A program made the translations under genes and the position numbers. Positions 9,261-47,734 of a stretch of DNA of 64,000 nt are shown piece after piece (the stretch's first letter is position 1; the number at the start of each line of letters is the position of its first letter). Origin of the DNA: an uncultured Acidimicrobiales bacterium (GTDB taxonomy: Bacteria > Actinomycetota > Acidimicrobiia > Acidimicrobiales > RAAP-2); the NCBI GenBank assembly GCA_963699105.1, contig CAVOTI010000001.1, positions 186,221 through 250,220 of the forward strand, written 5' to 3'. The notes beneath the pieces are model-generated. The model had not been told where the DNA came from. It worked only from the letters and a program-made list of their open reading frames with translations, and made no database searches.

Positions 9261-9734
9261 ATGCTGACCGACGGACTGAACCACGTGGCGGTGCTGACCA
9301 ACGACGCCCACCGGCTCCACGCTTTCTACGAGGACATGTTCGACGCCGAGGTGGTGCGGGACGCCCCCGAGGTGGCCGACGCAGCCGTCCGTCTGTCCAT
9401 CGTGATGATCGGACCGCACACCGAGCTCAACGTGTTCCAGATCGACGGGAACACCGAGGCCGATCGCCAGGTGCCCATGTTCGGGCGGGGACGGCTCGAC
9501 CACCTGGCTCTGCAGGCGGCTTCGCTCGACGACTTCGAGACCATCCGCAACCGGTTGATGGCCCGGGGGGCCTGCGACGCCTTCGTCACCGACTTCGGGC
9601 CGGTGCTCAGTCTGTTCTTCCGGGATCCCGACGGGCTCGAGTGCGAGGTGTGCGTGACCAACCCCGACGCCGTTGCGGGAGTGGGCCATCCCCCGGGCAC
9701 GCCGGCCCGGCGCTACGTGCCCGAGGACCCCTGA
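9261..9734 (+). CDS. VOC (glyoxalase/bleomycin-resistance/dioxygenase) family protein
   Basis: MLTDGLNHVAVLTNDAHRLHAFYEDMFDAEVV...RLDHLALQAASLDDFETIRNRL...FFRDPDGLECEV. A GAGGAGGA Shine-Dalgarno sequence lies 4 nt upstream of the ATG. Confidence 0.75.
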   Translation: MLTDGLNHVAVLTNDAHRLHAFYEDMFDAEVVRDAPEVADAAVRLSIVMIGPHTELNVFQIDGNTEADRQVPMFGRGRLDHLALQAASLDDFETIRNRLMARGACDAFVTDFGPVLSLFFRDPDGLECEVCVTNPDAVAGVGHPPGTPARRYVPEDP

Positions 9735-9865
9735 CCATCAGCCGCCGGGCGGCGGCTGGCCGTGGCCGCCCCCCGGCCCGGCCGGCATCCCGGTGTCACA
9801 GCCATAGGCTGTGCTGTTGATGTGTCGTTCCCTTCCCGTACCGGCCGGCCCGGTGCCGGGCGTCT

Positions 9866-12800
9866 GATGCCGGGTCCGGCCGCCCCGGCGGCGGTGCCGT
9901 CCGAACTGCCCCTGATCGACACGGTCCGGTCCGGCGCCCTCGACGGGGTTGCTCCCGACTCCATCCTCCATTCCCTGCACCCGGCGGTGGCCGGCTGGTT
10001 CGCCAAACGCTTTCCGGCCGGGCCCACCGAGCCCCAGCGCTCGGCGTGGCCCAGCATCACCGCCGGGGAGAACGTGCTGGTGGCGTCACCGACCGGTACC
10101 GGCAAGACGCTGACCGGGTTCCTGATGGCCATCGACGGGGCCTACCGGGCCCACGCCGAGGGAACCGCTCCGGTGGGCCACCGGACCGGGCCGACCGTCG
10201 TCTACGTGTCGCCGCTGCGGGCCCTGGCCACCGACGTGCACGAAAATCTCCAGGTCCCCCTGGCCGGCATCGCCGAGGAGGCCGGGCGGCTGGGTCTGGC
10301 GGCCCCCGACCTGTCGGTGGCGGTGAGGACGGGGGACACCCCGGCCGCCGACCGGGCGGCCATGCGACGGTCCCCGCCCGACCTGCTCGTGACCACCCCC
10401 GAGTCGTTGTACCTGCTCCTCACGGCGGCATCGTCGCGAGCGATGTTGCAGGGGGTGCGCACCGTCATCGTCGACGAGGTGCACACGCTGGCCCGGGACA
10501 AGCGCGGCTCCCACCTGGCCCTCAGCCTCGAGCGGCTCGACCACCTGGTGTCGGCCGGTGGGGGCCGGCTCCAGCGTATCGGCCTGTCGGCCACCCAGCG
10601 CCCGCTCGAGGTGGTGGCCCGGCTCCTCTCCGGCACGGATCCGGGGCGCCCGCCCACCACCGTCATCGACTGCGGCCACCGTCGCCATCTCGACGTGGCC
10701 ATCGAGCTACCCCACACCGAGCTCGAGGCGGTGGCCAGCGGCGCCCAGCTGTCCGATGTGCTCGACCGCATCGCCGCCCATGTGCTCGACCACCGGACCA
10801 CCCTGGTGTTCGTCAACACCCGGAAGATGGCCGAACGCGTGGCCCATCAGCTGGCCCTCCGGCTCGGCGATGCCGGGGACGACGACCGGTCGGACGACGC
10901 CGGTGGGCCCGGGGACGGTGACCGGATCGATGCCGCCCTGCAGGTGGCGGCCCACCACGGGAGCCTGTCGCCGGCCCGGCGCCGGATGGTCGAACAGCGG
11001 TTGCGGGCCGGCGACCTCCGGGCCCTGGTGGCCACCGCCTCGCTCGAACTGGGTATCGACGTGGGTCCGGTCGAACTGGTGTGCCAGATCGGTTCTCCCC
11101 GGGCCATCGGCACGTTCCTCCAGCGGGTGGGCCGGGCCAACCACCAGCTCGAGGGAACGCCGGCCGGGCGCCTCTATCCCCCTCACCCGTGACGAGCTGG
11201 TGGAGTGCACGGCCCTGCTGGCCGGGGTCCGGGCCGGGCACCTCGACGTGCTCGAACCACCGGTTGCCCCTCTCGACGTGCTGGCCCAACAGCTGGTGGC
11301 CGAGGTGGCGGCGGCCGACGAGTGGGAGGTCGAACCCCTCTACCGGCTGATGACCCGGGCCGCCCCCTACGCCGACCTCGACCCGCGCCACCTTCGACGA
11401 AGTGGTCGAGCTGGTGTCGTGGGGCATCCGGACCGGTCGGGGCCGGCGGGGGGCCCACCTCCACCACGACGGGGTCAACGGACGGCTGCGGGCCCGGCGG
11501 GGTGCCCGCCTGGCCGCCCTGACCAGCGGCGGTGCCATCCCCGAGACCGGCGACTACCGGGTGGTGCTCGACCCCGACGGCGTCACCGTCGGCTCGGTCC
11601 ACGAGGACTTCGCCGTCGAGGCCACCGCCGGCGACATCTTCCTGCTGGGCACCCACTCGTGGCGGGTGGCCAAGGTGGAGACGGGCACGGTCCGCGTCCA
11701 CGACGCCGGCGACCTCCCCCCGACCATCCCGTTCTGGCTCGGGGAGGCGCCGGCCCGGACGGCCGAGCTGTCGGAGGAGGTGGGCGAGCTGCGGGCCGCG
11801 CTGGAGCCGCTGCTGGCCGCCGGCGACGGGCCGGGGCCCGGGAGGAGGGCCCGGAGCGGGCCGGGGTCTCCGACGAGGTGGCCGACCAGGTGGTCGCCTA
11901 CCTGGCCGCCGGGCTGGCCGCCCTCGGGAAGCTCCCCACCCGGGACCGCCTGGTCATCGAACGGGTCTTCGACGAGAGCGAGGGCACCCAGCTGATCGTC
12001 CACTGCCCCCTTCGGCGGGCGCATCAACCGGGCCCTGGGGCTGGCGCTTGCGCAAGCGGTTCTGCGTGTCGTTCGACTTCGAGCTGCAGGCGGCGGCGGA
12101 CGACGACACGGTGGTGCTCTCCCTCGGGCCCCAGCACAGCTTCCCCCTGCCCCAGGTGCCGACCATGCTGACCGAGCCGCACCGCGGTCGACGTCCTGAC
12201 CCAGGCGCTCCTCCCCCATCCGATGCTGGCGGCCCGGTGGCGCTGGAACCTCAACCGGGCCCTGGTGGTGCCCCGGTCACGGGGCGGGCAGCGGCGGCCC
12301 ATCCACCTCCAGCGGATGGAGGCCGAGGACCTGCTGGCGGCGAGCCTGGCCGTCCCTGGCCGCCTGCCAGGAGAACGCCGCCGCCCGGCCCGGTCCCCGT
12401 GCCCGACCACGTCCTGGTCCGCCAGACGGTGGCCGACTGCCTGACCGAGCCGCTCGACGCCGCCGGCCTGGTGGCCCTGCTCGAGGGCATGGAGTCGGGC
12501 CGGTCGACGTGCACTTCGTCGAGTCGGCCGAGCCGTCACCGCTGTCCCACGGGATCCTGACCGGGCGGCCGTTCACCTTCCTCGACGGTGCGCCCCTGGA
12601 GGAGCGCCGGACCCGGGCGGTGGCCGTGCCCCGGGGACTGGGGCCGCTCGGCCGTCACGGGCTCCCCCCGGGTCTGCCGGTGCCGCCTCGGAGCTCGGAC
12701 CGCTCGACGCCGGCGCCGTCGGCCGAGGTGCTCGACCAGCTCGGACCACGGCCACGCGATCGCCGACGAGCTCCACGATCTCCTCTTGTCATTGGTGCTG

Positions 12801-30337: not shown

Positions 30338-30390
30338 GTGTCGGAGGGGGGACTTGAACCCCCACGCCCTTGCGGGCACTAGCCCCTCAA
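30338..30390. repeat. att site: displaced 3' half of tRNA-Leu, an exact copy of 43450-43502
   Basis: The 53 nt GTGTCGGAGGGGGGACTTGAACCCCCACGCCCTTGCGGGCACTAGCCCCTCAA are identical at both sites. The flanks diverge immediately. Confidence 0.95.
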
Positions 30391-35168: not shown

Positions 35169-35656
35169 ATGGGCAGGCCCCCAAAGCCCCTAGAAGTGCA
35201 CCGCCGCAACGGGAACCCCTCACGTAAGAAGCTCCCGGCCCGGTCGGAGACCGTCACACTGGCGCCGGCCACGGATGCAGTCCCGATCTCCCTCGGTCCA
35301 CGTGGCCGAGAGGTTACCGACGGTCTCTGGATATGGCCGTATGGATATCGGAGCTGGATCTCACCGTCCTGGAGGACTTCGCCCGCACCTGGGACGAAGT
35401 CTGCGAGATGCGCGATGTGATCGCCGCTGATGGCCTCACCTACCTCGAACCCTTGGTGACCCCGGCCGGCAATGTCGTCGGGGAGAAGCCAGTCGCTCAC
35501 CCATTACTCAAGGAGTTACGCAGTGCTCAAAAGCAGCTCGACACCCACCGGAAGGTCCTCGGATTCGACCCCACATCGCGAGCCACGCTTGGCACCGCCG
35601 AGGTCAAGCGTCAAAGTCGGCTCGAAGAGCTCAGGGCGAAGCGGCAAGTCCCCTAG
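35169..35656 (+). CDS. Phage terminase small subunit (P27 family), one frameshift (~35335)
   Basis: MGRPPKPLEVHRRNGNPSRKKLP... (ORF 35169..35420) continues as WISELDLTVLEDFARTWDEVCEMRDVIAADGL...HPLLKELRSAQKQL (ORF 35333..35656). Confidence 0.7.
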
Positions 35657-37298
35657 TTGGCCCCCGCTCCACCTCACGAAGGTCCCAGCCGCCGATATCA
35701 AGCGAGGAGACGGCCCCCAGATCTGTGAGGCGGTGGAGTCCCTGGCCACCGTGAGCAAGGACGGGTACGCCGCCAGTGCGGGGGACTCTCTGGTCCTGAG
35801 GTCGTGGCAGAAGGAGCTATTGAACCACCTGTTCGCCCGCCGCCCCAATGGCCGGCTCCGTCACCGGGTCGCACTCATTGGACTGCCCCGTAAGAACGGC
35901 AAGTCCTCTCTGGGGTCCGCTCTCGCCCTCGACGGACTGATCTTCGGGCCGGGCGGAGCCGAGGTCTACTCGGCAGCAGCGGAGAAGGAGCAGGCCCGGA
36001 TCGTCTTTGGTGAGACCAAGCGCATGATTGCCGCCGACCCCGAACTGTCCGCACTGTGCCATCCGATGCGGGACGTGATCGAGGTCCCCTCCACCAACAG
36101 CATCCTCCGCTGCCTGTCCGCCGAGGCGTACTCCAAGGAGGGCCTCAACATCTCCCGGGCCATCGTGGACGAACTCCACGCCCACCCGACGAGGGAACTC
36201 TGGGATGTCCTCACCCTGGCCTCAGCCGCCCGGATCGACCCGCTGATCGTCGCTATCACCACCGCTGGGGTGAAGACCCAGTCTGACGGTCAGGACACGG
36301 TCTGTTACGAGCTCTATCGCCACGGCCTCGAGGTGGCGGCCGGGACCGTTGATGACCCCAGCTTCTTCTTCGCCTGGTGGGGAGCGCCCGACGATGCCGA
36401 CCACCGGGACCCCGCGGTGTGGAAGCAGGCCAATCCCGGCTATGGGGATCTGATCGACCCCGAGGATTTCGAGTCCTCGGTCAGGAGGACCCCCGAGAAC
36501 GAGTTCAGGACCAAGAGGTTGAACCAGTGGGTGTCCTCCTCGAAGGCGTGGCTGCCGGCGGGAGCCTGGGATGCCTGCGTTGACGAGTCGAGGTCCATTC
36601 CTGACGGCACCGACGTGGTCCTTGGCTTCGACGGGAGCTACAACAACGACAGCACTGCCCTCGTGGTCGTCACCCTTCCCAAGGAGGGAGAACTGCCCCA
36701 TGTGGACGTTGTGGAGGCGTGGGAGAAGCCGTCCGACGAGATCGACTGGACCGTTGACATCCTCGAGGTGGAGGAAGTCATCCGGGACGCTTGCCGGCGC
36801 TGGCAAGTCCAGGAGATCGCCTGCGACCCCGCCCGGTGGGCAAGGACCTACCAAATTCTCGATGACGAGGGGCTCCCCGTCGTGACGTTCCCTCAGAGCA
36901 GCGAGCGTATGGTCCCCGCAACCCAGCGTCTCTATGAGGCGGTGGTCAACCAGCAGGTGACTCACTCAGGAGACACCCGGTTAGCCCGGCACATGGCCAA
37001 CGCCGCCACGAAGACGGATTCCCGCGGTACTCGACTGACAAAGGACGCCAAGAGGTCCAACCGCAAGATCGACCTAGCCGTGGCCCTGGTAATGGCCTAC
37101 GACCACGCTGCGAAGGTTAAGCCGAGGGGCCAGGGGATCTGGAGCGTCCGCGAGATGGTGGAGGAGCTCCGGGCCAAGCAGCAGGCAAACGGTGAGCCGG
37201 TCGGCGATGTCGTGGACCCTATGAACCCCTCCGTACGACCAGTAATCCCACCCGGAGGCGGTCAGGGTTTCATCTCCTTCAAGGATTTTTACCGATGA
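35657..37298 (+). CDS. Phage terminase large subunit (Terminase_1 type); start unresolved
   Basis: LVLRSWQKELLNHLFA...VALIGLPRKNGKSSLGSALAL (Walker A), RAIVDELHAH (Walker B), and a nuclease half with VLGFDGSYNNDSTALVVV...IACDP. The in-frame GTG is at 35733. The TTG at 35657 needs one upstream frameshift. Confidence 0.85.
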
Positions 37299-37454
37299 CA
37301 TGCCCACAATGAACCAACCCGAAAGGAATTGAACAAATGACATTTCGTCAACTTTTCCAACCTCAACAAGGTCGCACCACCGACCACCCGCTGCCGCGGC
37401 CCTCTGCGGGTCTGCTCGGACCGGGCGTCGGCCAGGATCGCAGCCCTCGGGTCG

Positions 37455-37780
37455 GTGCGGAGTCACTGTGAGTGCGGACAATCGTGGCCAGGTCACACGA
37501 TCCCCGACCACCGCTGCATCGACCACCTCGGCCGAGACTTGACCGAGATGAAGTTGGCCAGGGCCGAAGGGCGAGGCGAGCGCTCGCAGCGGTCAAGAGT
37601 CTCTGCCAACCGTTGCCTTGTGCGTTCTGCCAGGCCGAGATGAGGGCTGGTGAGACTCATATTTGTGCCGGGCCCAAGGGTCAGTTCCCCCATGAGCTCC
37701 AGGCCGCCCAGTGGCAGATGAAGGGCACCAAAGAGGCCCTCAAGGCCGAGCTGGCCGAGGTCCAAAAGGGGACGCTGTGA
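37455..37780 (+). CDS. Small Cys/His-rich hypothetical protein, apparently frameshifted
   Basis: CECGQSWPGHTIPDHRCIDH (ORF 37455..37643) continues as CAFCQAEMRAGETHIC...coiled-coil tail (ORF 37472..37780). Confidence 0.3.
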
Positions 37781-38206
37781 GGACCACGTCACTGCAGGAT
37801 CTCGCAGAGGACGTCGCGCTCCTCCGCCACCGGCCCGGTGCTCCAGAACCGCGACTTGGCCGAATGGCGCCGTTCCGCCCGCAGGAAGGCGGCGGCAAAA
37901 GCGACCGCCCCGGACGCCCGCACGCATCGCCTCCAGGAAGCCGTGGCTCGCCTCGAAGGGCCAGGCATGCATCGGCGCTCGAGCGGCTCGATGCCAAACT
38001 GGAGCTCAAGGCTGCGTTGATCGCCGCCCGCCGCGAGTTAGCCGGCAAATGGGTGAGCGCCCCGCAGCGGACTGGCCCTGCGGTCTGAGTACAGAGGCCA
38101 GAGCGAACGACGTGTTCAATTCCCAATCGGTAGGGATGCGGAGCGACGGGGCGCCCGCAGCGGGCTCGAGGTCCGGTCATCGGGAGCGGGTCTCAAGTCA
38201 AATGAG

Positions 38207-38682
38207 GTGCAGGTGACGGGCGCAGCCGTCCGCTACGGGGTGTTTTATGAGGTGCGGACGACCTGGGTACTTTCTCCGAGCGAATGCTGCCCGGCGTCGC
38301 CAGCGAGGTCCTGGCCAAGCCAGACCTCGACTGTAGCTTTCTTTGTAATCACTCAGGGATCGCACTGGCTCGCACCACGACCGGGAGCCTCAAGCTATGG
38401 GACACGTCTGATGCCCTCTGCTTCAGCGCCACCCTCGACACCAGGTCGAGGACCGCGAACGACGTCGCCATCGCCATCGAGCGCGGGGACCTGAGCCAAT
38501 GTTCAATCGGCTTCGTGGTGGCGGACGATAGTTGGAGTGACGACTGGTCGACCCGTTCGGTGTCCAAGCTCCACTCTCTGCAGGACGTCAGCTGCGTGTC
38601 CTATCCAGCGTCTCCCACGACCTCGGTCTGCTCCGTGGTCAGCGGGGTAGCTACGGATGATCGCCAGACGCCGGCTTCCTGA
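38207..38682 (+). CDS. HK97-family prohead protease (Peptidase S78/U35), one frameshift (~38270), short
   Basis: GAAVRYGV...FSERMLPGVASEVL...LDCSFLCNHSGIALARTTTGSLKLWDTSDAL...AIAIERGDLSQCSIGF...LQDVSCVSYPASPTTS matches the family pattern PGAF...L.NH...LAR...GTL.L...I.RGD...S.GF...L.EVS.V..PA. Confidence 0.65.
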
Positions 38683-39188
38683 AGTGGACCATTCGGAGTA
38701 GGCCGCATCTCCAACGGTTCGATCGGCGCTCAACATCGTCGCACGTTGCCAGGCTCGAAGCCACCTCGTAGGCTATCGGCGACCAGCTTGCCGCCGCCGC
38801 CGCAGAACTAACTGCTACATCGACGCCGACCCCTGCCCTGTGGCAGCCATGGCCGAGGCGCACGCCGACCTCATCGCCATCATTTCGGTCATCGCTTCCG
38901 CATTTTCCCGATGGGATCGCATGGGCAGAATCGAGCGATGCGAGGCCGTGGAGTGTGTCAGGGCCCTCGGAGAACGGGCTGACCACGTCGCGGAGGTCCT
39001 GGGCCCGCTTCCGTGACCTTGGCTCCTGAAATCCTGCAACGTTTCTGGTCCGAACCGGCCTGATTCCATCAAATTTGATGATTGCGGCTGCTGAGCCGAA
39101 ACTTGAAGCTTCAGGGAGAGTTGTGCGCGGGCAGGGGACCTAACCCAAGAAGGACAAGACCCACAAACCAAAAAAAGGCGGAGCAACA

Positions 39189-39482
39189 ATGCGAAAGACG
39201 CGCAGGGCGGTACTCGCGTTCCTCATCTTTTCGGCATTTGTCCTAGTCGGCCTTACCGTCCGGCCATCTCCAGCTTCGGCCGGTGGATCTCCAGCCTCAG
39301 TTCGTAGTAGTCAGGCGGACCTTCCTGATTTCCAGGTAGAGCCAGGTGAGAAGGTGCACGAGACAACATTTTCAAGCGGTTCGGGAACTGCGACTACCAG
39401 CATGGGGATCGATTGTTTGGCACGTCAATGCACGGTGATCGCATTCGCAGATGTAAAGTCAGTACTGCCGCTTTCCGGGTAA
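39189..39482 (+). CDS. Small secreted hypothetical protein (low-GC cargo)
   Basis: Signal peptide MRKTRRAVLAFLIFSAFVLVGLTVRPSPASA. A-rich region with a purine-rich GGCGGAG upstream of the ATG. Confidence 0.5.
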   Translation: MRKTRRAVLAFLIFSAFVLVGLTVRPSPASAGGSPASVRSSQADLPDFQVEPGEKVHETTFSSGSGTATTSMGIDCLARQCTVIAFADVKSVLPLSG

Positions 39483-39510
39483 TTACCAAGCATCGGTCAC
39501 GCTAAGCGTT

Positions 39511-40272
39511 GTGCCTGGAGGTTCGGCCACCATAACGAAGAAAAAAAGGGTTAGTCCCCACCCAGCCGCTGTCGGGCCTGTTGACGATCCGTTTGGGCAG
39601 ATTAGCGTTGTTGCCGCGGGCGAGATTACAAATGATGGCGAGGTCAATCCGTACCTCCCCCTTATTGTCGATCTCACCGTTGAGGTCGAGGGCGCACCTG
39701 GAGACCTTTTCTCTACGGGAAGCCCCTTTCCGCCGAATCCCGTGTGTCCCGGTACTGGAAGTGCGAGTCAGTTCCCTGTCGTAATCGATCATGAAAGGCA
39801 CAACACAACTTATGCCTTATCGCTGACCGGCAATGCTGGGGGCGTTGCACTGAATCAACCGATTGGATCGATTACTACCGACGACAAGGGTTTCGCCATC
39901 CAGACGTTCACTTTGCCCCAAGTGCCAAGCCACAACGCCTGGACGCTGGTCGCGACTCCGTCTAAGGGCAAAGCCGTTTCGACAACGTTCGCTACTGGCT
40001 ACTCCAACTGCGAGGTTGGCCAATTCGTGGATGATAACGGCGATCTTGAGGTTAATTGGGCAATTACGGGTGCTCTTCCAGGTGCCCCAGCCCAATTTAA
40101 CATCGATGGTTCTCTACAAGAACAGGACCCCGTCCAAAATGACGGGTCAGCGTCAGACAGCTTTGTGTGGAATTGCCCATCTGGCACGGACCACAGCTTT
40201 ACGATTAATTACGCCACTATCGATAACCCCAATGTTTCCGCGTACTTTCCTGTTGAATGCCCCTCCTACTGA
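39511..40272 (+). CDS. Hypothetical protein (low-GC cargo), beta-rich and Cys-containing
   Basis: 253-aa ORF with a GTG start and no signal peptide in this frame. No family recognised. Confidence 0.45.
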   Translation: MPGGSATITKKKRVSPHPAAVGPVDDPFGQISVVAAGEITNDGEVNPYLPLIVDLTVEVEGAPGDLFSTGSPFPPNPVCPGTGSASQFPVVIDHERHNTTYALSLTGNAGGVALNQPIGSITTDDKGFAIQTFTLPQVPSHNAWTLVATPSKGKAVSTTFATGYSNCEVGQFVDDNGDLEVNWAITGALPGAPAQFNIDGSLQEQDPVQNDGSASDSFVWNCPSGTDHSFTINYATIDNPNVSAYFPVECPSY

Positions 40273-40424
40273 AATAGAACCTCGGGAAACCACGTCGTGG
40301 CGGTCCCTTCTCAGCACAGAGGCAGCCACGAGCAGCTGACCCATCTGGAGACCGCCACGGACAAGACTGTCCCCGAACGCCGGCTAGGTGGAAACAAACC
40401 CTTTGACCGACGACCGTCGTCCGG

Positions 40425-40631
40425 TCAGAGGACCCACTGAACCGACGTCAGGTCCGCACGGTGCCCGTCGCACGCTTCGACGGTGTGCCACTTGCCGGCG
40501 GCATCCTGGAACCGTCCACGCCATACGGTCAGGTAGGGGCAGTGCTGGGCGTGCCCCGTACCGTCCTCAGCCTGAATCATCCGGAAGCAGCGCCGGGAGA
40601 GCAGGCAAAAGGCGTTGGCATAGTGCTGCAT
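40425..40631 (-). CDS. Small Cys/His-rich hypothetical protein
   Basis: 68 aa. Its ATG lies 3 nt after the stop of the upstream gene (TAAGCGATG). A hairpin lies just downstream (40398-40420). Confidence 0.45.
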   Translation of the reverse strand: MQHYANAFCLLSRRCFRMIQAEDGTGHAQHCPYLTVWRGRFQDAAGKWHTVEACDGHRADLTSVQWVL

Positions 40632-40634
40632 CGC

Positions 40635-41078
40635 TTACGGGGATCCTGGGGCATCCCGCGTACCCCCGAAATAGGAACCCTGAAACGGGTGATGTTCGAC
40701 GAACCCTCGTATCTCAGTGAGTAAAAGGCCAATCATCGGATAGATGGCGTCGCCCCACATCTTCTGGTCGGTCCACTTAGTTCGGTCAACGATTCGCGTC
40801 CGGATATGTGCCTCGGCCGAAGTGCTGTCTGGGTCGAAAATCTCCATCAGCCACTCGTCGAGAAGCCCCGCCTGGCCAGCCCATCTAACGGCCTGTAGAA
40901 CCTCTTGTTCCATGGTGGGAGTTTTTGGTCGGTCCATCGGCGCCAGCTTGTTTGCGGTACGCAGCCTGCGTTCCATGGCCCGCTCTGCCACCTCCGATCC
41001 CACGATGTCGGGGACGCCCATGGCCCTTCGAATCAATAGGGACCAGGCGGTGCCATCTTCTTCCTGTTGCTCGCTCAT
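40635..41078 (-). CDS. Hypothetical protein
   Basis: 147 aa, acidic N-terminus MSEQQEEDGTAW. It is the first gene of a two-gene minus-strand unit that diverges from the RHH-int unit. Confidence 0.45.
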   Translation of the reverse strand: MSEQQEEDGTAWSLLIRRAMGVPDIVGSEVAERAMERRLRTANKLAPMDRPKTPTMEQEVLQAVRWAGQAGLLDEWLMEIFDPDSTSAEAHIRTRIVDRTKWTDQKMWGDAIYPMIGLLLTEIRGFVEHHPFQGSYFGGTRDAPGSP

Positions 41079-41149
41079 TTCATCCGCCCCATTCCCGCTC
41101 GCATTCGTGACGACTGACGGAAGCGTAGCCAGATGGGTTCCCGGAGGGT

Positions 41150-41190
41150 GCTTGTATTATACGTACACCTATACTTATACTGACCTCTAG
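41150..41190. promoter_or_regulatory. AT-rich divergent promoter/operator candidate with three (T/C)TATAC repeats
   Basis: CTTGTATTATACGTACACCTATACTTATACTGACC. TATAC occurs at 41158, 41170 and 41176. This is the lowest-GC spot of the window and lies between genes starting at 41078 (-) and 41221 (+). Confidence 0.4.
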
Positions 41191-41220
41191 CGGCACCTGG
41201 CCGCACGAATGGAGGCTCCG

Positions 41221-41925
41221 ATGGCACCAACCAAAACGCTGTACGTGAAGGAAAAGGACATGCCGCTGTGGGAGCGGTTCGAGAAGGCGGTGAACGACTG
41301 GAACGCTGCAGACAGCGTTAGCGCTCTGATCGCCGAAGCCATGCGTGGATATCTAGATCAGTACGGGGACCAGGGCGGTGGTCTATACGTCTCTGCGCCA
41401 GATGAGGAGCTTCAGACATTCGGCGATGGCATGACGGCAATCCTTGACCGTCATGGCCCTGGGTGGAAGTTGTGCCTTGACCCCGACGTCTTCGGTGACG
41501 ATGCGTACAGTCCCTACGAACTGTCGTCCCGGGATCTGCCAGGTGCCATTACCGAGGCGCGCCAGCATATGGTCCGTGAGCGCGCTCAAGGCGAGATAGC
41601 CGCCGCCGCCCGCCGTCTGCGCGAAGCCCGTGGGGAAGAGGAGATTGCTCAGGAGCGCGAAGGCAGGGATGCCGGGAGGCGTTGGGCGCTGAACGACGCG
41701 ATGCCAAGCGAGTTGCAGGCTGTTTTGGAGTTATCGAATTCTTGGTGGATCTCCATTGAGCCCGACGGACGCGAGTGGCCGACGCTGTACACGGCACTTT
41801 CTGAGAGCATCGACAGTGCCCCCGACGAGCCCTGGGTCATCAGCCGGGATCCCTTCATGGTGGCTTTTTTCGATGCGGCAGCGGAGGTCTACTCCGAAGT
41901 GCTCTCGACCGAAAAGGAGAACTGA
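41221..41925 (+). CDS. Hypothetical protein with possible N-terminal ribbon-helix-helix fold, coupled to the integrase
   Basis: GGAGG lies 5 nt upstream of the ATG at 41221 (the ORF track start of 41209 is less likely). KTLYVKEKDMPLWERFEKAV...SVSALIAEAMRGYL has a beta-alpha-alpha pattern. The stop overlaps the int ATG (TGATG). Confidence 0.45.
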   Translation: MAPTKTLYVKEKDMPLWERFEKAVNDWNAADSVSALIAEAMRGYLDQYGDQGGGLYVSAPDEELQTFGDGMTAILDRHGPGWKLCLDPDVFGDDAYSPYELSSRDLPGAITEARQHMVRERAQGEIAAAARRLREARGEEEIAQEREGRDAGRRWALNDAMPSELQAVLELSNSWWISIEPDGREWPTLYTALSESIDSAPDEPWVISRDPFMVAFFDAAAEVYSEVLSTEKEN

Positions 41926-43052
41926 TGGGCAAGAGAACATTCGGATCGACCCGCAAACTGCCCTCTGGCCGCTACCAGGCGTCCTACTGGCACGAAGGGA
42001 TCCGCTACACCGGACCCAAGACCTTCGACAGTAAGGCCGACGCTAACGCCTTCCTCTCGGAGACTGAGACGAACCTGCGGAAGCAGCTTTGGATCGATCC
42101 TGATGCCGGTGAGATCACCTTCCGCCAGTTCGCCGATGAATGGCTGGAGGCCCGCCTGGACCTACGAGCGACGACCCGCAGCCTCTACCGCATCCTGCTC
42201 GACAAGTGGCTACTCCCCCACCTCGGCGACAAGTCGATCGGCAGCATGACGCCGGAAGTCTGGAAGCGCTGGTTCGTCAAGGTGAGTACCGCCAATCCCG
42301 GCAGCCTGCAACCAGGCAAGGCGTACAAGCTCGCTCACACGATTCTCAATGCCGCCGTTGCCGATCACCGGATCGTCGTGAATACCTGCGTGGTCAAGGG
42401 TGCCGCCAACGAGGAGAGCCCAGAACGGCCTACTGCCACGATCGAGCAGATATTCGCCCTCGCCGATGCCATAGAACCCGAGTACCGCGCCCTGGTGTTG
42501 ATCGGCGCATTTGCATCCCTTCGATTCGGCGAGGCTGCCGGGCTGCGGAGGCGCAGCGTCGACCTTATGCACCGGACGCTCACGGTGACGGACCAGGCCA
42601 TCGAACTGGCTGACGGAAGCACTATGTTCGGACCCCCGAAGACCCCCGCCGGCGTCCGCAAGGTTGCGATCCCCGATTCAGTGTTCGCCACCATTGAGGA
42701 CCACTTGGACGCTCATGTTGGTGTCGATCCTGATGCCCTACTTTTCACCGCCTCCAACGGCACTCCCCTGCGCCGTACGAAGTTCCGCTCACGTTGGCTC
42801 AGGGCGTGCAAGAAGGCAGGCGTGACGGGACTGCACTTCCACGATTTGCGGGGGTCGGGGGCGACGCTGGCGGCTCAACAAGGCGCCACCATCGCAGAGC
42901 TGATGAACCGTCTTGGCCACAAGTCGGCGACCGCTGCAATGAGATACCAGCACGCCACTGCCGAGCGCGATCGGGCCCTCGCCGATGCCATGGGGAAGGC
43001 GATCGAAAATGCCAAGCCTCAACCGGTCGCGAAGATCGCGGCCATCGGATGA
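41925..43052 (+). CDS. int: Tyrosine recombinase / phage integrase
   Basis: Intact 375 aa. N-terminal SAM-like domain. Catalytic region has LRFGEAAGLRR (Arg), HFHDLRGSGATL (HxxR) and GHKSATAAMRYQH (Tyr). Confidence 0.9.
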   Translation: MGKRTFGSTRKLPSGRYQASYWHEGIRYTGPKTFDSKADANAFLSETETNLRKQLWIDPDAGEITFRQFADEWLEARLDLRATTRSLYRILLDKWLLPHLGDKSIGSMTPEVWKRWFVKVSTANPGSLQPGKAYKLAHTILNAAVADHRIVVNTCVVKGAANEESPERPTATIEQIFALADAIEPEYRALVLIGAFASLRFGEAAGLRRRSVDLMHRTLTVTDQAIELADGSTMFGPPKTPAGVRKVAIPDSVFATIEDHLDAHVGVDPDALLFTASNGTPLRRTKFRSRWLRACKKAGVTGLHFHDLRGSGATLAAQQGATIAELMNRLGHKSATAAMRYQHATAERDRALADAMGKAIENAKPQPVAKIAAIG

Positions 43053-43449: not shown

Positions 43450-43502
43450 GTGTCGGAGGGGGGACTTGAACCCCCACGCCCTTGCGGGCACTAGCCCCTC
43501 AA
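43450..43502. repeat. att site: tRNA-proximal copy of the 53-nt direct repeat
   Basis: Identical to 30338-30390. It forms the 3' half of the intact tRNA-Leu. Confidence 0.95.
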
Positions 43503-43534
43503 GCTAGCGCGTCTGCCTATTCCGCCACTCCGAC
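43451..43534 (-). tRNA. tRNA-Leu (anticodon GAG)
   Basis: Reverse complement: GTCGGAGTGGCGGAATAGGCAGACGCGCTAGCTTGAGGGGCTAGTGCCCGCAAGGGCGTGGGGGTTCAAGTCCCCCCTCCGACA. 7-bp acceptor stem. Anticodon stem CTAGC/GCTAG with loop TTGAGGG. Long variable arm. T-loop GGTTCAAGTCC. Discriminator A. No encoded CCA. Confidence 0.9.
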
Positions 43535-46534: not shown

Positions 46535-47734
46535 GGGCCCGGTGAATCGTGATCCTCGACCGCCGGTGCGTTGCTGGCTCCGCGGAGGGCCGCCAGCCCG
46601 GGGAGGTCGCCGTACTCCAGGAGCTCGAGCGAGGCACCCCCGCCGGTGGAGATGAAGCTGATGCGGTCCTCGAGGCCGAGGGCGTCCACCGCCGCCGCAC
46701 TGTCTCCGCCGCCCACCACCGTGAACCCGGTGCAGGCGGCCATGGCCCGGGCCACCATTTCGGTCCCGGCCGAGAACCGGACATCCTCGAAGGCGCCCAT
46801 GGGGCCGTTCCACAGGACGGTGCCGGCCGATTCGATCAGTCGACCGTAGGCATCGGCGGTGGCCGGTCCGATGTCCAGACCCGCGCCACCCGTCGGGGAC
46901 GTCGCGCCCCACCGTCTTGAACGTGCCGTCGGTGCAGTCGCAGCCGAAGGGGGCGTCGGCTTGCAGGGCCACGATGTCGGTGGGCAGCAGGATCGGCTTG
47001 TCGGACCGGAGGAGTTCGGCGCACTCGGGCAAGCGGTCCACGTCCACCATCGAGTCACCGATGTCGTGGCCGGCGGCGGCCAGGAAGGTGAAGGCCATCC
47101 CTCCCCCCACCACCAGGGCGTCGACCCGGGTGAGGAGGGACCTGAGCACGCCGAGTTTGTCGGCCACCTTGGCTCCCCCCACCACGGCGACGAAGGGGCG
47201 GGCCGGCGATCCGAGCAGGGCCCCGAGCGCCTCGATCTCCCGCTGCAACAGAAGCCCGGCTGCACTAGGCAACCGCTGGGGAGGACCGACCACCGAGGCG
47301 TGGCTGCGGTGGGACACGCCGAAGGCGTCGTTGACGTAGGCGTCGTGCCCGTTGATCAGCTTGTCCACAAAGGCCGGATCGTTCTGCTCCTCACCCGGAT
47401 AGAACCTCAGGTTCTCCATCAGCTCGACCTGGGGGGCCAGCCGGGCCAGCTCCTCCCGCACCGGGGCGAGGTCGTAGCGGGGGTCGGGGGCCCCGTTGGG
47501 CCGTCCCAGGTGGGTGCAGGCCGTCACACTGGCCCCCCGGTCCAACAGGTACTCGAGGGTGGGGAGGGCGGCCCGGATCCGGAAGTCGTCGGTCACGGTG
47601 GAGGGAGCATCGGTGCAGGGTCGGAGGGGAACGTTGAAGTCGACCCGGACGAGCACGCTGGCTCCGTGCAGGTCGGGCAGATCCGACAGCAACGGCAATC
47701 CCCTGAGTAGTGGATTATCCGAATCACCGCTCAT
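46522..47734 (-). CDS. pgk: Phosphoglycerate kinase, one frameshift (~46879)
   Basis: N-terminus [16 protein letters not shown]...THLGRP...[11 protein letters not shown]...NDAFGVSHR. After the shift: [12 protein letters not shown]...[11 protein letters not shown]...[11 protein letters not shown]...[13 protein letters not shown] (ORF 46522..47265). Confidence 0.9.

Follow-up and report, generated by a model that had tools for sequence, protein, structure and literature searches.

A low-GC insert marks a putative variable cargo slot in a phage-derived island from an uncultured soil member of the Acidimicrobiales

Results

A low-GC insert within a phage-derived island

The 64-kb stretch of DNA analyzed here, hereafter the window, belongs to an uncultured soil bacterium of the Acidimicrobiales, an order of actinobacteria. 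It contains a 13.1-kb phage-derived island that is bounded by two attachment (att) repeats and integrated at a tRNA-Leu gene. Within the island, about 1.4 kb of DNA with the lowest guanine plus cytosine (GC) content of the window separates two conserved genes, here named Y and r68. An initial annotation of the window had placed a low-GC cargo block at 38683-41200 and proposed that its genes took the place of capsid genes. Our analysis suggests that the low-GC DNA fills a variable slot between Y and r68. Capsid genes were not replaced.

The island carries the marks of a phage-derived element, with att repeats at tRNA-Leu, a tyrosine integrase, small and large terminase subunits (TerS and TerL) and an HNH protein. 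The backbone genes are ordered as an excisionase-like (Xis-like) helix-turn-helix (HTH) protein matching HTH_17, a DUF3631 replication protein (E 4e-48), a DUF559-like nuclease, HNH, TerS (Terminase_4), TerL (ATPase and nuclease domains), a gene here named X, an S78 prohead protease, Y and, beyond the insert, r68. Pfam, PHROG and related scans found no portal, capsid, tail or lysis genes anywhere in the island. The initial annotation was therefore right that capsid genes are missing.

The mean GC content of the window is 0.675. The 21 lowest 400-nt segments of the 64 kb all begin within 39001-40051 (GC 0.522-0.56), and the lowest 1384-nt segment begins at 39026. The initial annotation placed this trough directly after the prohead protease and advised that its limits be sought from windowed GC and codon usage. 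The trough is real and is the window minimum, but it extends from 39017 to 40400, starting past Y and stopping before r68. Because the segment directly after the protease (38683-39016) has a GC content of 0.647, the compositional island is 39017-40400 and not 38683-41200. Insert and backbone differ both in GC content (0.548 versus 0.628) and in GC at third codon positions (GC3; 0.52-0.55 versus 0.73-0.82).

Four open reading frames (ORFs) had been assigned to the block as genes of no recognizable family. All four are present, and scans with Pfam, PHROG, PADLOC (E up to 0.1) and NCBIfam returned no match to any of them. Two, sp97 and b253, do lie in the insert. The other two, r68 and r147, form a reverse-strand pair to its right and do not share its composition, r68 being backbone-like and r147 intermediate in GC3 (Table 1). 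Both are nearer to the backbone in composition than the insert is. An A8 run reported at 39533-40 is not there; the window has only two A7 runs, at 39170-39176 and 39541-39547.

Homologues of the cargo were sought in 60 relatives, 36 genomes of the same genus and 24 others of the same order. The cargo is considered foreign because searches of these genomes gave no significant match to sp97, the b253 module or r147. The composition of the insert points to a donor of about 54% GC and to an origin outside the island. Its own composition and the absence of sp97 and the b253 domain from the 60 relatives agree with the original suggestion of a separate, recent foreign acquisition in a prophage- or satellite-like island.

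An imperfect 18-nt direct repeat, ACCACGTCG(C/T)GG(A/C)GGTCC, flanks the insert. Its copies agree at 16/18 positions and are the sole two matches in the 64 kb. The repeat is suggestive of an insertion junction but no proof of one, because the search pattern was derived from the two copies.

A relative island carries different genes at the same position

Related loci came from Microflora Danica soil metagenome-assembled genomes (MAGs), labelled uncultured Acidimicrobiales or Acidimicrobiaceae. A search with TerL identified the sole close relative of the island in a genome of the same genus, G034. This second island is 11.2 kb long and lies between 43-bp tRNA-Val repeats (att, 298-340 and 11477-11519). 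It begins with an integrase, an AlpA-like HTH protein, an AAA_25 replication protein, VRR-NUC, HNH, TerS and TerL. These are followed by X (145 aa, Cys/His-rich), the protease (292 aa, S78 domain at residues 132-285) and Y (up to 171 aa), all of them intact. At the right end are WhiB, a methyltransferase encoded on the opposite strand and, just within attR, an r68 homologue of 89 aa. Positions 9696-10400 of this locus (L009) hold the WhiB-type regulator and, on the opposite strand, the methyltransferase, which is of class I; the methyltransferase, with a GC content of 0.555, is likewise a GC trough.

No portal or capsid gene is present in the G034 island. Since the G034 backbone also lacks these genes, their absence is older than the cargo. 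The proposal that the cargo replaced capsid and head-completion genes thus fails: G034, with intact TerS-TerL-X-protease-Y, has no such genes either, the insert lies between Y and r68, and no scar of a deleted head module is seen. The cargo displaced no genes.

The block was aligned with the G034 island using BLASTN. Y (38683-39016) aligns with L009 8696-9030 (76% over 337 nt), and r68 (40424-40633) aligns with L009 11033-11242 (82%). Between these two genes, the insert of the window shows no similarity to the corresponding 2.0 kb of G034. The content is sp97 and b253 (1.4 kb) in the window versus WhiB and the methyltransferase (2.0 kb) in G034. Conserved flanks with different content between them were therefore found in a comparison that involves one relative. 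Judged from these alignments, 39017-40423 appears to be a variable cargo slot between Y and r68. Because the G034 slot holds WhiB and a low-GC methyltransferase, the slot seems to take up foreign genes repeatedly.

One further TerL locus, from G052 (L010, TerL 38% identical), was set aside. It is a different element with a capsid gene upstream of TerL and is uninformative on the slot.

Table 1. Features of the island and their third-position GC content
Feature	Position	Strand	GC3	Remarks
attL	30338-30390	none		53-bp perfect direct repeat, identical to 43450-43502; left island border
X	37337-37780	+		Cys/His-rich backbone gene; two frameshifts (+C near 37394, -T near 37571) when compared with the intact 145-aa gene of G034 (tblastn, DNA alignment)
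Prohead protease	37711-38682	+		HK97-type (S78) with N-terminal extension; Peptidase_S78 E 2.6e-16, last 132 aa
Y remnant	38683-39016	+		Conserved backbone gene, left slot border; GC 0.647; interrupted by an in-frame TAG and a single frameshift (G034 Y as reference)
Direct repeat, copy 1	38982-38999	+		18 nt, imperfect; in 3' end of Y
Low-GC insert	39017-40423	none		Variable slot from Y to r68 (putative); GC 0.548, window minimum; about 1.4 kb
A7 run	39170-39176	+		Shortly before the ribosome-binding site (GGAG) and ATG of sp97
sp97	39189-39482	+	0.52	97 aa; N-terminal signal peptide (MRKTRR, 18 hydrophobic residues, PASA/GG); preceded by GGAG
b253	39511-40272	+	0.55	253 aa; residues 1-62 disordered, 63-253 tandem immunoglobulin (Ig)-like beta-sandwich module (predicted), 4 Cys
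A7 run	39541-39547	+		Within 5' end of b253
Direct repeat, copy 2	40289-40306	+		18 nt, imperfect; 17 nt past b253 stop
r68	40425-40631	-	0.81	68-aa Cys/His protein, right slot border; overall GC 0.652; 88% identical to G034 copy
r147	40635-41078	-	0.66	147-aa near-orphan; precedes r68 in one operon, 3 nt apart
Divergent AT-rich intergenic region	41079-41208	none		From r147 to the RHH-like gene; read from the sequence
RHH-like gene and tyrosine integrase	41209-43052	+		238-aa protein with ribbon-helix-helix (RHH)-like N-terminus and overlapping integrase gene; Phage_integrase E 1.9e-17; ATGA overlap at 41925
attR	43450-43502	none		Second 53-bp copy, 3' part of tRNA-Leu(GAG)
tRNA-Leu(GAG)	43450-43534	-		Holds attR
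Backbone genes (DUF3631, TerL, integrase)			0.73-0.82	
Host genes			0.88-0.90	

The cargo encodes a signal peptide and a secreted-protein module

The small cargo protein sp97 begins with a signal peptide. It has no significant homologue in the 60 relatives, where four borderline matches were obtained (E 8e-4 to 0.01). Homologues of b253 are few. A full phmmer scan of 1.84 billion representative proteins returned 13 and a word-indexed search of 5.8 billion proteins returned 1. In every case residues ~70-250 of b253 match the C-terminal end of the homologue. The homologues are 424-938 aa long and possess signal peptides and, where recognizable, FecR and discoidin domains or HExxH motifs. One protein, P0001 (277 aa), consists of a signal peptide, about 60 residues and the module, so a short architecture of signal peptide plus module does exist. 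No match to the b253 domain was found in the 60 relatives, IMG/VR or INPHARED.

The AlphaFold2 model of b253, built with the alignment of these homologues, has two consecutive beta-sandwiches. Its predicted local distance difference test (pLDDT) score exceeds 90 across residues 70-250 and stays under 50 across residues 1-62. AlphaFold2 models were used as Foldseek queries against PDB and BFVD. The matches to b253 were generic repeats of the Ig or fibronectin type III (FN3) type only (E 2e-5 to 3e-4), with a template modelling (TM) score of at most 0.34. They included the Bap C region, SiiE, a Corynebacterium membrane-anchored protein, transglutaminase C-terminal barrels and phage Ig/FN3 domains. 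In sequence the family is distinct, with conserved Cys and an LPxxPxHxxW motif. The module retains all four Cys, of which C167 is invariant in the family and C222 nearly so, along with the conserved core residues. Retention of the Cys fits an extracellular, disulfide-bonded domain.

Because the signal peptide is on sp97 and b253 has none, the two ORFs may be one frameshifted gene. sp97 is in frame 0 and b253 in frame 1, with a gap of 28 nt. Frame 1 is open from 39458, and a single indel within 39458-39482 would fuse them. We infer that sp97 and b253 are, or once were, a single gene for an exported protein of the cell envelope or extracellular space, about 350-365 aa long and with the usual layout of the family. 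The split may reflect a true mutation, or it may come from an indel error in the long-read assembly. As a slip site joining the two ORFs, the A7 run at 39541 was ruled out, since in frame 0 a TAA at 39483 precedes it and no start codon follows.

r68 and r147 belong to the integrase-proximal end of the island

The r68 family comprises at least 142 clusters, 60-90% identical, all annotated as 'hypothetical' and without a Pfam domain. Nearly invariant residues are H3, Y4, C15, G24-T-G-H-A28, C31-P32, W37-R-G-R-F41 and G56-H-R-A59. Family members are 68-120 aa long and occur in Acidimicrobiales and soil metagenomes (loci L011-L030). AlphaFold2 predicted a small all-beta fold (pLDDT 83) for which Foldseek found no match in PDB at E <1; a profile search of PDB sequences was also empty. 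tblastn searches of INPHARED and PLSDB gave no match to r68. Copies are found in varied neighborhoods, usually near an integrase, a transposase or an att end, and some genomes have several.

r147 is almost an orphan. Its sole homologue lies at L013 10585-11050, is split by a frameshift and is 30-36% identical over the full length. It is located directly downstream of an r68 copy that follows an integrase and adjoins a phage-family gene. No match to r147 was found in the 5.8-billion-protein collection, PDB or metagenome scans. None of the 60 relatives has a significant match, although one marginal hit was seen in G006 (E 0.0086).

We considered whether r147 and r68 form a type II toxin-antitoxin pair. 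The r147 homologue adjoins r68 only in L013, where the gene order is reversed, and there is no match to a toxin-antitoxin family. This reading is unsupported because r68 mostly stands alone. The pair is loosely associated. The initial annotation made the oppositely oriented two-gene unit part of the acquisition, a view at odds with r68 being a conserved mobile-element family of the order that is usually near an integrase or att end. Together with the divergent RHH-like gene and the integrase, r147 and r68 constitute an integrase-proximal end module outside the low-GC acquisition. The 238-aa RHH-like protein found no match in a search of PDB sequences.

X, the protease and Y are broken in the window

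Three backbone genes that are intact in G034 are interrupted in the window. The prohead protease is indeed short as called, as the initial annotation had noted, but through at least two frameshifts relative to the 292-aa G034 protein, and its pieces lie in frames 1, 2 and 1. A possible 55-aa ORF of the initial annotation is the C-terminal part of Y (38840-39016), 74% identical to the G034 copy. In total X, the protease and Y contain at least five frameshifts and a TAG in 1.7 kb; conserved host genes show a single frame break over about 5.6 kb. Because this density is far above that of the host genes, the decay of X, the protease and Y is probably genuine.

The essential gene pgk has a frame break at 46880-46917 relative to an intact copy in a related chromosome. 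This break shows that indel errors occur in the long-read assembly, so isolated frameshifts at other places in the window need care. The pgk check was used in place of a crude count of GC3 frame switches, which over-counts normal gene borders and was not used as a measure of assembly error. Short reads were also consulted. Four 151-nt unitigs from one soil run touch the region 37.3-41.2 kb and show no indels; 37.8-40.3 kb is uncovered. One Illumina unitig (40342-40492) crosses the junction of the insert and r68 without a difference.

A patch of 160 nt in X (37370-37529) has 90-100% DNA identity to the G034 island, compared with about 40-60% in its flanks. The two frameshifts in X exactly bracket this patch. 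Identity of this kind could stem from recent recombination or from a site that functions as DNA, for example in packaging.

The integration site and a likely control region

The intergenic region between r147 and the RHH-like/integrase operon (41079-41208) contains repeated TATAC. It is likely to be a control region, although a search there for a match to the sigma-70 consensus found none. In two other Acidimicrobiales genomes, an integrase (57% identical) or an integrase remnant is present at the same tRNA-Leu site (L011 7199-10207 and L015 10001-12610). Both sites adjoin secG-tpi-pgk, and each has an r68 copy 1.5-2 kb away. Because L011 and L015 also carry an integrase or remnant there, the tRNA-Leu site is a recurrent integration hot spot.

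Discussion

The low-GC block is best explained as the swappable accessory slot of a small, partly decayed phage-derived island that has received a foreign gene for a probably exported, adhesin-like protein. We hold this explanation to be the probable one, with considerable room for doubt. It supposes that each island takes different lower-GC foreign DNA between Y and r68. If intact, sp97-b253 would be a gene of the lysogenic-conversion type, expressed from the resident island. Its product would be exported by Sec or Tat and might then alter the cell surface or bind to it. It could possibly block adsorption or bind a surface polymer.

Several observations weigh against this explanation. With X, the protease and Y all broken, the whole island may be defunct. 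Coding of sp97 is indicated solely by its signal-peptide-like sequence. As called, b253 has no signal peptide, a GTG start and no clear Shine-Dalgarno sequence, and it may never be exported or made. Fusion of the two requires an indel in a segment, 39458-39482, where no long homopolymer lies. For the cargo no sigma-70-type promoter was found, and the one weak terminator-like site is inside sp97. The slot concept itself is drawn from a single relative. X was found in only 2/401 genomes of the order, and it had no match in any metagenome or IMG/VR contig searched. A search of public sequencing runs for the cargo found none holding the stretch.

In a rival reading the cargo is dead, a non-functional fragment of a larger secreted-protein gene (a signal-peptide piece and a 3' module) captured by illegitimate recombination into a decaying island. 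b253 is only the C-terminal module of 424-938-aa proteins, its first 62 residues are disordered without a signal peptide, and sp97 and b253 are in different frames. The backbone is also decayed well beyond the level of the host genes. Yet the module ORF is open throughout its 253 codons at 54% GC, the conserved Cys and core residues are all retained, and the fold is predicted with very high confidence. P0001 provides a short stand-alone homologue with a signal peptide, and the split may be an artifact of an assembly that has indel errors. We regard dead cargo as a real, less probable alternative. An artifact on a larger scale, in which the assembler joined a low-GC piece from another organism, is very improbable. 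This is a long-read MAG with frame breaks, and the failure to find the cargo in public runs could be read in the same way, but the G034 island is collinear with the sequence on either side, no difference was seen in a short-read unitig that crosses the right junction (40342-40492), and the insert is just 1.4 kb within a 1.5-Mb contig.

Two functional alternatives concern what the ORFs encode. The initial annotation suggested a role in defense or superinfection exclusion, which for a satellite could mean a surface protein that masks a receptor or a two-gene defense pair of r147 and r68. Accessory and defense genes of satellites and prophages do lie in such a place, past the packaging genes and close to the integrase; the accessory positions of phage-inducible chromosomal islands are given in PMC10085698. 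In principle an exported Ig-like protein could act at the surface, and r147 is closely coupled to r68 and occurs with it again in another element (L013). However, PADLOC scans of sp97, b253, r68, r147, the Y fragment and the RHH-like protein were empty, and no enzymatic or NTPase domain is present. r68 occurs mostly without r147 in very varied contexts, and none of the proteins was found in INPHARED phages or IMG/VR. A defense role is unlikely on this evidence. That the ORFs are unrecognized capsid, decoration or head-completion proteins is scarcely credible. The initial annotation had named such an identification beforehand as the outcome that would contradict cargo. The ORFs do lie downstream of the protease, phage decoration proteins do carry Ig-like domains, and BFVD gave many weak Ig/FN3 matches. 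But the b253 model is tandem Ig/FN3-like with no HK97 fold, its best TM scores (0.2-0.34; PDB, BFVD) are to generic Ig repeats, and its homologues are C-terminal modules of cellular secreted proteins. Furthermore, the slot in G034 holds WhiB and a methyltransferase, and GC3 marks the insert as foreign to the island.

The feature is real, and an accessory slot is an ordinary explanation for it. The unusual items are the capsid-less backbone with terminase and protease, the r68 family and the 160-nt patch in X. In both islands (35333-38682 in the window and L009 4600-9030) HNH, TerS, TerL, a zinc-finger-like X and a protease with a 130-aa N-terminal extension occur without portal or capsid. The shared backbone could represent an undescribed satellite layout. 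One might go further and envisage an undescribed class of actinobacterial satellites that uses its own HNH, TerS, TerL, zinc-finger-like X and N-terminally extended protease, without portal or capsid, to package itself into helper proheads. In such a class the Y-r68 slot would be hot-swappable, sp97-b253 would be a satellite-borne surface protein that alters phage adsorption or cell-cell contact, and r68 would be a new and widespread type of regulator that governs the excision or maintenance of elements in Acidimicrobiia. We consider this whole scheme speculative and rather unlikely.

These results provide an example of a slot with exchangeable genes of foreign composition in a mobile element from a poorly known, uncultured soil lineage. 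There is no link to a known phenotype, and the cargo may be broken. Two uncharacterized families are nevertheless exposed, r68 and the Cys-containing tandem Ig-like module found at the C-terminus of secreted proteins. The occurrence of terminase and protease without portal or capsid could bear on how such elements hijack helper phages.

Comparison with known systems

The slot resembles the accessory (moron) regions of prophages and satellites. It is an insert of foreign composition in an att-bounded, integrase-bearing island, it lies between backbone genes downstream of the packaging module, and its content varies among related elements. It differs from these regions in that no promoter or terminator of the cargo itself could be recognized, no known conversion, virulence or defense function emerged, and the gene is perhaps split. 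The host island family is also undescribed and very rare. In phage-inducible chromosomal islands (PICIs), accessory genes are located after terS or next to the integrase (PMC10085698).

Like capsid-forming PICIs (cfPICIs), the island has an integrase, an AlpA/Xis-like HTH protein, a replication protein, HNH, TerS, TerL and an HK97-type protease, in a similar order and size range. Unlike them, neither the island nor its intact G034 relative possesses capsid, portal, head-tail adaptor and connector genes. Because these defining genes are absent, the island is no cfPICI. It is distinct from the mycobacterial EPIP satellites (PMC12822802) as well.

The b253 module can be compared with Ig-like and FN3-like adhesin repeats such as those of the Bap C region (7dm0), SiiE (2yn3) and a Corynebacterium protein (3lso). 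The likeness consists of two consecutive beta-sandwiches and of homologues that are secreted, multidomain proteins. The differences are a TM score that does not exceed 0.34, no Pfam or NCBIfam match and a separate sequence family.

Among actinobacterial elements, those of the phiRv1/phiRv2 type share with the island a small size, integration, a replication protein of the DUF3631 type, a terminase and a prohead protease. To our knowledge they are without tail genes. They differ from the island in that they reportedly keep a capsid gene and have serine integrases.

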